Shown: piece after piece, positions 59,676 to 62,123 of the stretch
Layout of the letters: every line of letters starts with the position of its first letter
How positions within the stretch are numbered: position 1 is the first letter of the stretch
From: Escherichia coli
GTDB taxonomy: Bacteria; Pseudomonadota; Gammaproteobacteria; Enterobacterales; Enterobacteriaceae
Direction: 5' to 3' (one strand)
DNA length: 62,123 nt
Assembly: GCF_003334815.1 (NCBI RefSeq)
Contig: NZ_QOWO01000026.1
Made by a program: the position numbers and the translations under genes
Notes under the pieces: model-generated
Seen by the model: only the letters and a program-made list of their open reading frames with translations
Databases searched by the model: none
What the model was told of the DNA's origin: nothing

Positions 59676-59750
59676 AGCGGGCGTAGTTCAATGGTAGAAC
59701 GAGAGCTTCCCAAGCTCTATACGAGGGTTCGATTCCCTTCGCCCGCTCCA
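59676..59750 (+). tRNA. glyU: tRNA-Gly (anticodon CCC)
   Basis: GCGGGCG acceptor stem, cuUCCCAag anticodon loop, GGTTCGATTCC T-arm, CGCCCGC-T-CCA 3' end. Confidence 0.92.
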
Positions 59751-59864: not shown

Positions 59865-61511
59865 ATGATTCAGCTATCCAGCAGTCACAAACTTCCAGCC
59901 GTCTCCTATCTCTACCAGCGTAACGGCGTCTACTACTTCCGTCTTCGGGTCAGACAATCAAACAATGATAGAATGACCTCAATATCATTACGGACCAAGG
60001 ATAGACGCACCGCTATGGCTCACTCAAGGCACATCAAGGCAGCACTCAAGGCAATACACGCAGACAGACCCAACGCTACCTATGAGGAAATGAGGGAGCA
60101 CCTTAAGGACATCGCTGAGTGTGAACTGTCTATGGGCCGTTCAGATCTCTTTGAGCCTGACATGAGGGATATCTACCGGGACCAATACGGAGAACTTGGT
60201 GAGAGCCTTACCGATGCTCTGGCTAGTGAGCCGCTAAGTATTGACCAGCATCGTTACATCAATGAGGCCCTGAAGGTGCTAAAAGCCTGCATGAGGCGTA
60301 TCGAAGCGGGAGACAGTCAGCCTCTGATAGATTACGTCGATCATTTTAATGATATTGATAGGCAAGATAGCCAAGTAGCCTCTGTGTCCCTATCTGTTAA
60401 TGCTCCAGAAGTAAAACCAGAAGTAAAACCAGAAGTAAAACTAGAAGTAAAACCAGAAGTTACGCCTAGCATTACCATAGCGAGCCTCTTTGAGCAATAC
60501 GAAGCGGAGAATTATCAGAACTGGAAGCCTGCAACCTTAAGGGAAAACAAGGCGTCACACGCTGCGTTAATCGAAATATTCGACCATCTGGGTCTCAATG
60601 CAGACGCTAACAGGGCTGACATGCTTAAGGTCCGTGATGTGCTCCAGCAGTTACCTAGGAACCGTAAGCAGCGCTTCAAGGATGCCCCACTTGCTGACCT
60701 GTTGAGCCGTGAAGATAAGACAGATTGTCTGGATGTCGTTACCATCAACAACAAGTATCTTATTAAGATGGCTGCTGTCTTTAGGTGGGCTGTGCGCAAT
60801 GACTTGATTAAAAAGAACATGACTGAGGGTCTGGAGCTTAAAGTCCCTCAGCGTAAAGCCTCAGGGGCCCGTAACGCCTTCTCTACGGAGCAGGTGGGGC
60901 AACTACTGGTCGCAGCTAAGGCATACTCTCAGAAGACCTCTGGTAAGCCCTACCACTATTACGTTACGGCTTTGGCTGCTATCACTGGGGCGAGACTCAA
61001 TGAAATAGCCCAACTACAGGTCAAAGACGTCAGGACCACTGAGGCGGGAACCGTTTATATTCATATCAATGAAGACGATAGTAGTCTACCCGGTAAGAGC
61101 ATCAAGAACGCTCATAGTGACCGCTGTGTGCCTCTGGTCGATGGGGCCTATGGTTTTATATTGGCTGACTTTATGAGGTTGGTTGAGACCCGTAGAGGCG
61201 CTGATGGTGATGACGCTATGGTGTTCGATGGTCTTCGCCTCATGAAGAACGGTTACGGTGAGCAGGTGAGTAAATGGTTTAATCGGACGTTGTTGCCTAA
61301 AGTCCTCGCAGATCGTAGCGGCTTAGCGTTTCACTCGTTTAGACATACAGTTGCGACCCAGTTAAAACAACATGGGGTCGAGTTGGCGTATGCACAGGCG
61401 ATCATGGGGCATAGTTCAGGGTCTATTACTTACGACCGTTATGCTAAAGAGGTTGAGGTTGATAGGCTGGTCAATGTGATGGCTGATGTTTATAAGGAGA
61501 TTGTGGGGTAA
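59865..61511 (+). CDS. Tyrosine-type integrase of a genomic island inserted next to tRNA-Gly (N-terminal arm-type domain, PEVK-repeat linker, C-terminal catalytic domain)
   Basis: 548 aa. The N-terminus (SYLYQRNGVYYFRLRV) is typical of island/phage integrase arm-binding domains. The C-terminus has R (TGARLNE), HSFRHT and Y (ITYDRYAK) catalytic motifs. It starts 115 nt after the tRNA 3' end. Confidence 0.85.
   Translation: MIQLSSSHKLPAVSYLYQRNGVYYFRLRVRQSNNDRMTSISLRTKDRRTAMAHSRHIKAALKAIHADRPNATYEEMREHLKDIAECELSMGRSDLFEPDMRDIYRDQYGELGESLTDALASEPLSIDQHRYINEALKVLKACMRRIEAGDSQPLIDYVDHFNDIDRQDSQVASVSLSVNAPEVKPEVKPEVKLEVKPEVTPSITIASLFEQYEAENYQNWKPATLRENKASHAALIEIFDHLGLNADANRADMLKVRDVLQQLPRNRKQRFKDAPLADLLSREDKTDCLDVVTINNKYLIKMAAVFRWAVRNDLIKKNMTEGLELKVPQRKASGARNAFSTEQVGQLLVAAKAYSQKTSGKPYHYYVTALAAITGARLNEIAQLQVKDVRTTEAGTVYIHINEDDSSLPGKSIKNAHSDRCVPLVDGAYGFILADFMRLVETRRGADGDDAMVFDGLRLMKNGYGEQVSKWFNRTLLPKVLADRSGLAFHSFRHTVATQLKQHGVELAYAQAIMGHSSGSITYDRYAKEVEVDRLVNVMADVYKEIVG
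60405..60461 (+). repeat. Intragenic 12-bp tandem repeat (ccagaagtaaaa, about 4.75 copies) encoding (PEVK)n in the integrase
   Basis: ccagaagtaaaaccagaagtaaaaccagaagtaaaactagaagtaaaaccagaagtt. Confidence 0.9.
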
Positions 61512-61631
61512 CCAAGCTGTCCACCCCCGGGGAGATTTGCCTTGAGGATGACCATAGTCGATGACCATATTGCTACAGGCCTGTGTGGTCATGTTTTTGA
61601 CTCACGGTTTTCACTACTTGTCAAGGATTTC

Positions 61632-61654
61632 TAATACGACTCACTATAGAGAGA
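61632..61654 (+). promoter_or_regulatory. Near-consensus bacteriophage T7 RNA polymerase promoter (copy 1): TAATACGACTCACTATAG|AGAGA, with predicted +1 G at 61649
   Basis: Positions -17 to +1 match the T7 consensus TAATACGACTCACTATAG at 18 of 18. The +2 to +6 region is AGAGA against consensus GGAGA. The specificity positions -12 to -8 are T7-like (CGACT), not T3-like or SP6-like. Confidence 0.7.
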
Positions 61655-61769
61655 AGGGACACAAAAAGTTTTCTCTCTTTCTCTCTCTTCTAGGACACTT
61701 GCTACTACTACTACAGGCCTGTGTGGTCATGTTTTTGACTCACAGTTTTCACTACTTGTCAAGGATTTC

Positions 61770-61792
61770 TAATGCGACTCACTATAGAGAGA
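61770..61792 (+). promoter_or_regulatory. T7-type promoter (copy 2): TAATGCGACTCACTATAG|AGAGA, with predicted +1 G at 61787
   Basis: This is the second copy of the tandem repeat. It differs from copy 1 by a single mismatch, A to G at -13. Confidence 0.6.
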
Positions 61793-61858
61793 AGGGACAC
61801 AAAAAGTTTTCTCTCTTTCTCTCTCTTCTAGGACACTTGCTACTACTACTACAGGTAG

Positions 61859-61888
61859 CTCTAACTCTAACTCTAACTCTAACTCTAA
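61859..61888 (+). repeat. Hexanucleotide microsatellite (CTCTAA)5, followed by a degenerate ccgtaa unit; (TAC)4 lies just upstream in each 138-bp unit
   Basis: ctctaactctaactctaactctaactctaa. Confidence 0.9.
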
Positions 61889-62046
61889 CCGTAACTTATC
61901 GCATCCTTTCAGGGGCGGGATGACCAATTACAGACACCAAGCGTTCTACTTAAAGTGAATGCTTCCTGTGTGCTCTGGGTCAGTCGATAAGTGAATAGCA
62001 ATAGACATCATATTAAATATGGTCTCTACCCTACAGGGGCTTAACT

Positions 62047-62123
62047 CTGATGAATCCCCTAATGATTTTGGTAAAAATCATTAAGTTAAGGTGGATACAC
62101 ATCTTGTCATATGATCAAATGGT
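62047..62123 (+). mobile_element. Terminal 77 bp of an IS10 end (IS4 family, Tn10-type). The element continues beyond the window.
   Basis: ctgatgaatcccctaatgattttggtaaaaatcattaagttaaggtggatacacatcttgtcatatgatcaaatggt matches, from memory, the IS10 outside-end sequence that precedes the transposase start. The 9 bp immediately before it (ggcttaact) resemble the IS10 target consensus NGCTNAGCN. Confidence 0.7.

Follow-up and report, generated by a model that had tools for sequence, protein, structure and literature searches.

An IS10-Right-type end within a tRNA-Gly island carrying T7-type promoters in an Escherichia coli chromosome

Background

The window considered here, a stretch of 62,123 nucleotides of Escherichia coli DNA (contig NZ_QOWO01000026.1), breaks off in what looks like IS10, shortly after tandem repeats that carry T7-type promoters. 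A sequence-only reading had matched its last 77 bp to the IS10 terminus and, holding IS10 to be rare on wild-type E. coli chromosomes, had wondered whether the region was engineered or plasmid-derived. The locus thus raises the question of which IS10 end this is, whether it marks a real transposition and of what form, and what kind of DNA has been struck. Loci in other genomes are cited by our handles (L002 to L033) where coordinates refer to them.

Identity and type of the IS10 end

The segment 62047-62123 (plus strand; CTGATGAATCCCCTAATGATTTTGGTAAAAATCATTAAGTTAAGGTGGATACACATCTTGTCATATGATCAAATGGT) agrees at 77 of 77 positions with the outside end of the IS10-Right copy, the one beside tetD, in Tn10 on R100 (NC_002134), compared with 73 of 77 for IS10-Left of the same plasmid. 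The mismatches to IS10-Left fall at IS10 nt 24, 25, 27 and 47, where the window has G, G, A and G as in IS10-Right and IS10-Left has T, A, C and A, and the left-or-right alignment that had been proposed is thereby answered as the outside end of the Right type. Megablast against 5426 complete E. coli genomes gave 100% full-length matches with E = 1e-31, and the best place was at least 99% identical in 1968 of the 2292 matching E. coli records. The 23-bp terminal inverted repeat (62047-62069, plus strand), exactly matched and common to IS10-Left and the window copy (nt 1-23), is found at a single place in the window and was not produced by any of 100 shuffles; in IS10/Tn10 it is the transposase binding site.

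The 3' 32 nt of the gene for the antisense RNA-OUT were recognised on the minus strand at 62092-62123 by Rfam (RF00240, model positions 39-70 of 70, 35.2 bits, E = 5.7e-5, flagged as 5'-truncated); truncation at the window end is the sole reason why this score stays under the gathering score of 41, and a complete IS10 copy returns the full RNA-OUT at nt 46-115 with 98.8 bits. A GATC Dam-methylation site, read in the sequence at 62113-62116 (IS10 nt 67-70), overlaps, according to the established IS10 literature, the transposase promoter pIN. In the complete chromosomal copy of L002, 108 nt separate the end of the element from the start of the DDE transposase coding sequence (402 codons), and in our locus the ATG (IS10 nt 108) would fall 31 nt past the window end. 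The L002 transposase is annotated as "IS4-like element ISVsa5 family transposase", and both Tn10 IS10 copies on R100 carry the ISVsa5 family label too, this being the name that the NCBI pipeline gives to IS10-like elements.

Judged by sequence, an IS10-Right-type outside end is thus confirmed, the element being an ordinary and already known one, and the earlier match to the IS10 terminus stands on the 77 identical bases, the Rfam hit and the megablast E-value together. Nucleotides 1-77 of IS10-Right, with the 23-bp repeat, the Dam site and the 3' part of RNA-OUT, are what is visible of its 1,329 nt, and IS10-Left and IS10-Right differ in R100 at 15 positions over the whole element. No inside-end sequence of IS10 was found anywhere in the window. 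IS10-Right of Tn10 is the active copy and forms a transposon arm on a plasmid, whereas the window copy is most likely solo and chromosomal.

Junction and target site

The junction lies precisely between 62046 and 62047, since the flank 61924-62046 is 100% identical to that of 17 uninterrupted chromosomes and this identity ends at 62046. The empty site of strain 14EC001 has ...CAGGGGCTTAACT on the left of the insertion point and TAAAGTTAAC... on the right, and in relatives GGCTTAACT is followed by TAAAG. The nonamer GGCTTAACT (62038-62046, plus strand) agrees with the IS10 hotspot NGCTNAGCN at 5 of its 6 specified positions, position 7 having A in place of G, just as the sequence-only reading had it; 285 of the 62115 9-mers of the window (0.46%) score at least as well, and this is the sole such site within 61511-62046, the 536 bp from the integrase gene to the IS.

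Two IS10 insertions served as controls. In R100 a 9-bp repeat, CGCTCTGCC, borders Tn10 on both sides, and the solo chromosomal IS10 of strain 203740 (NZ_CP025913, L002) has at its ends the 9-bp repeat GGCCAAGCT, which matches the hotspot at 5 of 6 positions. The latter copy measures 1,329 bp, differs from IS10-Right at 2 positions and has a 77-nt end identical to that of the window, but it sits in a chromosomal mobile element (in a phage tail gene), at an insertion site unlike ours. Transposition of IS10-like elements in the chromosomes of clinical E. coli isolates, accompanied by 9-bp repeats, has been described (PMC8767348).

An IS10-Right-type IS would have moved into the chromosome of this strain by normal IS10 cut-and-paste: the transposase would bind the 23-bp ends, IHF would bend the outside end, a target resembling NGCTNAGCN would be captured, and a 9-bp staggered cut would give rise to a 9-bp duplication. 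A second GGCTTAACT is then to be expected at the far end of the IS, beyond the window. For a solo element the predicted right junction consists of the inside end ...GGGGATCTCTCAG followed by GGCTTAACTTAAAGTTAAC, and for Tn10 or an inverted IS10 pair of ...GGGGATTCATCAG followed by GGCTTAACTTAAAGTTAAC; neither form had a match among metagenome contigs. The left junction was absent from the 5426 complete E. coli genomes, the metagenome contigs and the species-representative genomes.

That this join occurs in no other public sequence searched, and that contig ends are error-prone, could be taken as signs of an assembly chimera, with IS10 k-mers misjoined to a flank whose real locus is uninterrupted. 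However, the join falls at the exact first base of IS10, beside a 5/6 nonamer of a kind offered by so few positions, and this combination argues for a real transposition and makes a misassembly extremely improbable. The insertion is real and, judged by the public data, private to the strain.

Both ends of the window lie in repeats. It begins with a terminus of IS421 (IS4 family; 1-77, plus strand, about 75-78 nt) between rpiA and serA, identified by a 25-nt inverted repeat and the flanking repeat GGGGAACCTCCC, and this insertion is common to 30 complete E. coli genomes. A sequence that starts about 77 nt inside one IS and ends 77 nt inside another points to a repeat-broken contig from a short-read de Bruijn assembly with k = 77, an argument that is exact at the IS10 end only, the IS421 part being 75 or 78 nt long according to the IS end chosen. 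The window is thus probably a whole short-read contig of final k 77, bounded by repeats, and the nature of the assembler is deduced from the same pattern. Since the contig is broken at IS10, this end should have more than one neighbour, so that the genome would contain at least two IS10 ends. The IS10 end explains why the contig stops and at the same time marks the strain-private insertion.

Frequency of IS10 in E. coli and form of the insertion

The supposed rarity of IS10 on wild-type E. coli chromosomes is not borne out by the complete genomes. The 77-mer is present in 1876 of the 5426, carried by isolates from humans, pigs, poultry and water, and two thirds of all its places (4202) are chromosomal; the statement does hold for K-12 MG1655 (PMC11148124). 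Outside ends number 4202 on chromosomes and 2127 on plasmids, and inside ends 4123 and 751. The near equality of the two chromosomal counts indicates that chromosomal copies are almost all full length.

We hold with good confidence that the window ends in a chromosomal IS10-Right-type insertion, most likely a solo element of the full 1,329 bp at which the contig was broken as at any repeat, and the solo, full-length form taken by itself is very probable; its inside end would then join GGCTTAACTTAAAG directly. A complete Tn10 (IS10-Left, jemA-C, tetR, tetA, tetC, tetD, IS10-Right), the 9.1-kb tetracycline resistance transposon, would show the same end on its right, as the Right type is the one found at that boundary, and the Tn10-specific tetD/IS10-Right junction is complete in 576 records and 561 of the 5426 E. 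coli genomes, at times on chromosomes. Set against 4874-6329 IS10 end places, however, these 576 records mean that copies linked in this way make up only about a tenth of IS10 ends, a small share which makes a solo copy likely and a Tn10 boundary unlikely; the window holds nothing bearing on tet genes. A truncated remnant, in which an outside-end fragment has been cut by another element as happens near IS26 on resistance plasmids, is less probable still. Truncated IS10 remnants, often beside IS26, are mainly a plasmid feature, as reflected in the excess of outside over inside ends on plasmids and in the many plasmid matches that cover just the first 37 nt or lie under IS6-family annotations, whereas the present copy is chromosomal, where the two ends are balanced, and its visible bases are all intact. 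Full length, solo status, the 9-bp duplication at the far end and the presence of multiple IS10 copies in the genome are what we infer from these comparisons, and the strain would then carry an active IS10, possibly with Tn10/tet(B) elsewhere.

The suspicion of a laboratory origin, with a mini-Tn10 or an engineered construct beside synthetic T7 promoters, has in its favour that T7 promoters and Tn10 derivatives are standard laboratory tools and the cloning strains XL1-Blue, JM109 and DH10B carry IS10 copies (PMC11148124). But the 536-bp T7-promoter region is chromosomal, together with its flanks, in 92 genomes of natural isolates (pig, poultry, human, panda, sediment), and tRNA-Gly islands homologous to this one, likewise with T7-family promoters, are found in Klebsiella, Citrobacter, Pectobacterium, Proteus and other genera. 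The chromosome is not K-12-like here, given the glyU island and an IS421 insertion common to wild isolates, and vector sequence is absent. Kleckner mini-Tn10 constructs reportedly carry only the outer 70 bp of IS10, against 77 native bases in the window. We consequently dropped an engineered origin, to which we attach hardly any probability, and the wild isolates speak equally against the idea that the region came from a plasmid.

Many Klebsiella and E. coli resistance plasmids were seen to carry just the first 37 nt of the IS10 outside end, and other plasmid IS10 ends lie under IS6-family (IS26) annotation.

The interrupted tRNA-Gly island

The DNA that received IS10 belongs to a small island integrated at the tRNA-Gly(CCC) gene glyU (59677-59750, plus strand, found by ARAGORN). 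The last 23 nt of this gene constitute attL (59728-59750, plus strand), present as a single copy in the window, and in the uninterrupted strain 14EC001 the same 23-nt 3' end repeats exactly 4.2 kb downstream (L005 160-4385), which delimits a small integrative element. An open reading frame at 59865-61511 (plus strand) encodes the island tyrosine integrase of about 542 aa, the 14EC001 homologue of which matches Pfam Phage_integrase (2.3e-18) and phrog_1 (2.8e-42).

Downstream of the integrase, a 138-bp unit is repeated in tandem (61573-61855, plus strand; 2.1 copies), each copy with one T7 class-III-type promoter, TAATACGACTCACTATAGAGAGA at 61632-61654 and TAATGCGACTCACTATAGAGAGA at 61770-61792, whose +1 positions precede the IS10 junction by 398 and 260 nt. 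Compared with the 23-nt T7 consensus TAATACGACTCACTATAGGGAGA they show 1 and 2 mismatches, all outside -12 to -8, and on this ground they can be assigned to the T7 group (single-subunit phage RNA polymerase). Both copies have a G-to-A change at +2, and the second also A-to-G at -13; the +2 A is shared by T7's own phi1.1A promoter. Between strains (L006, L009, L031, L032) the promoter unit (118-138 bp) varies from 1 to 3 copies, often with a perfect 23-mer.

The promoters are followed by a conserved non-coding block, Block A (61880-62046, plus strand; L005 2170-2350), which ends in CAGGGGCTTAACT and contains the IS10 target. It was found in E. coli, Klebsiella, Rouxiella, Enterobacteriaceae RIT691 and, in part, Edaphovirga. 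In the island of 14EC001 about 1 kb of non-coding DNA separates the integrase from the gene for a 187-aa KilA-N-like protein (Pfam 1e-3; PHROG transcriptional regulator 9e-10), after which comes one for a 157-aa protein. Beyond the point of the IS10 insertion, relatives have AT-rich repeats, an inverted repeat, a degenerate second T7-like promoter, both genes and, some 2 kb further on, attR. The inverted repeat, GGTGAT-N17-ATCACC, lies 3' of the AT-rich region and bears a likeness, of weak statistical support, to that at T7 39329-39354, about 100 nt past phiOR. In these relatives the AT-rich region directly after the IS10 site (L005 2332-2520) has 20% GC and short repeats of the TTAAAGA type.

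With attL alone in the window and attR some 2 kb beyond the insertion point in relatives, IS10 lies inside the island and does not merely abut it, as had first been thought. The accompanying suggestion that it may interrupt whatever the T7 promoters originally transcribed fared better: in uninterrupted relatives the DNA from which IS10 here separates the promoters comprises conserved non-coding sequence, the AT-rich repeat block, the KilA-N-like gene and the 157-aa gene. IS10 has its outside end turned towards the promoters, and its transposase gene would thus point the same way as they do, leaving the window on the right. T7 RNA polymerase could perhaps transcribe across the 1.3-kb IS; a function at the DNA level that needs the promoter adjacent to the AT-rich region would be broken by it.

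Related islands in other Enterobacterales

The IS10 end itself is already known, and the island family came to light as a by-product of following it up. Related islands are present in 15 other Enterobacterales species representatives, and the integrase family is represented by 19 loci in species-representative genomes, 17 of them outside Escherichia/Shigella. Island size at tRNA-Gly is 4.2 kb in E. coli, and in six other genera (Klebsiella, Pectobacterium, Enterobacter, Citrobacter, Buttiauxella and Proteus) it comes to 6.2-6.5 kb. Each of the five E. coli relatives retrieved has 1-2 perfect or near-perfect T7 promoters on the same strand 3' of the integrase, and these are kept though flanks and cargo genes differ. 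With the core CACTATAGGGAGA and up to 2 mismatches, 33 plus-strand matches were obtained within 1.6 kb after the integrase, at 14 of 16 loci, against 3 in the other 147 kb, 3 on the minus strand and 0.27 expected by chance; the conserved feature of the islands is 1-4 promoters on the plus strand within 1.6 kb 3' of the integrase (L011-L026).

In K. pneumoniae ATCC 13883 the island carries AATTAGGGCACACTATAGGGAGA beside a perfect T7 promoter. In the genomes of Klebsiella T7-like phages this 23-mer fits the promoters, at some ten places in each, and 371 of the 423 phage records that match it are Klebsiella phages. Other promoter variants are found in the islands of Proteus, Citrobacter, Enterobacter and Pectobacterium. 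The specificity bases differ from host to host, and the Klebsiella promoter, the one checked against phage genomes, fits Klebsiella T7-like phages.

Some islands are linked to a known anti-phage system. In K. pneumoniae ATCC 13883 an ORF for PD-T7-4 (L011 6612-7244; PADLOC 8e-99) overlaps the stop codon of the integrase, as does one in E. coli 13P484A (L008 2501-3142) that is assigned to PD-T7-4 by its DUF4145 annotation, and in both the promoter array follows immediately. PD-T7-4 was noted earlier as a gene that "often overlaps an integrase gene" (PMC9519451), and under its present name RAZR it is described as an RNase which the T7 portal ring activates (PMC13017515); neither paper speaks of native T7 promoters or of T7-family promoter arrays downstream. 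The islands with RAZR/PD-T7-4 share their integrase family with that of the window, which differs in having no RAZR gene.

A further conserved non-coding segment, Block B (L005 2820-2935), lies just upstream of the KilA-N/Ant-like ORF in 14 of 23 compared loci, from 4 E. coli relatives and 10 other species. No Rfam family matched Blocks A and B or the island non-coding region.

Resemblance to T7 and possible role of the island

The E. coli island promoter has its best match in T7 phiOR, downstream bases included (85% over 40 nt), and the second island promoter is similar to T7 phi1.1A. At 71% over 69 nt the AT-rich region could be aligned to the T7 primary origin after phi1.1B (T7 5930-6006), a weak match (E = 0.04, from a small search). 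When the 990-bp non-coding region was searched against 50,697 phage records, it matched only through the promoter of about 27 nt, and in IMG/VR neither relatives of the KilA-N-like protein nor matches to the promoter with its flank were found. Three IMG/VR contigs with the Block A motif also carry host tRNA genes and an integrase, and for this reason look like provirus calls and not packaged DNA.

A decayed T7-like prophage was considered for the island and rejected, as the phage and IMG/VR searches came back nearly empty and the islands have a uniform size and att sites, which speak for an independent element; the regulatory DNA of the island could conceivably derive from a prophage remnant. 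Around the target the sequence recalls the place where the T7/T3 terminal repeat ends and TAAAG arrays begin; this too was set aside, being a resemblance of motifs seen by eye, without statistical support.

Tentatively, and with odds that we place somewhat below even, we propose that these are undescribed 4-6.5-kb tRNA-Gly islands with host-matched T7-family promoters, acting either as a phage-induced satellite or as a polymerase-triggered defence. The promoters would be of T7 type in E. coli, of K11/Przondovirus type and T7 type in Klebsiella, and of other types elsewhere, and the layout would comprise the promoters, the conserved non-coding blocks, an AT-rich region like the T7 primary origin and small regulator-like genes, with RAZR/PD-T7-4 in some. 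That the island is switched on by the RNA polymerase of a T7-like phage seems likely; that it is a satellite replicated or packaged by such phages is a possibility. As in P4-like, PICI and PICMI satellites, the islands combine an integrase, small size and att sites (attL and attR being the 3' end of tRNA-Gly). With regard to the helper-dependent excision, replication and packaging of such satellites, what was seen are sequence resemblances to T7 phiOR, phi1.1A and the AT-rich primary-origin region. No relevant description of a T7-promoter island or a T7 satellite was found in the full-text literature searched.

If this proposal is true, an infecting T7-like phage would turn the islands on and perhaps also replicate and package them, and the window would contain an island naturally knocked out by IS10, in which the promoters would no longer be coupled to the remainder. 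It is then the island family, and not the IS, that would be the discovery, provided that the island responds to T7-like infection, in which case the window allele would offer a natural loss-of-function control.

Two provirus-type contigs of IMG/VR (L032 3470-3780, L033 1546-1856) place the island beside a Met-Arg-Thr-Gly(TCC) tRNA cluster instead of a single tRNA-Gly(CCC) gene, which suggests a second integration site. Island relatives and the adjacent ETT2 type III secretion cluster have been struck repeatedly by IS3, ISEc68, IS2 and IS1 (L007 508-1715, L009 5147-6127, L008 from 5983, L005 11496 and 21198), and the ETT2 genes adjoining the island in 14EC001 are truncated or frameshifted.
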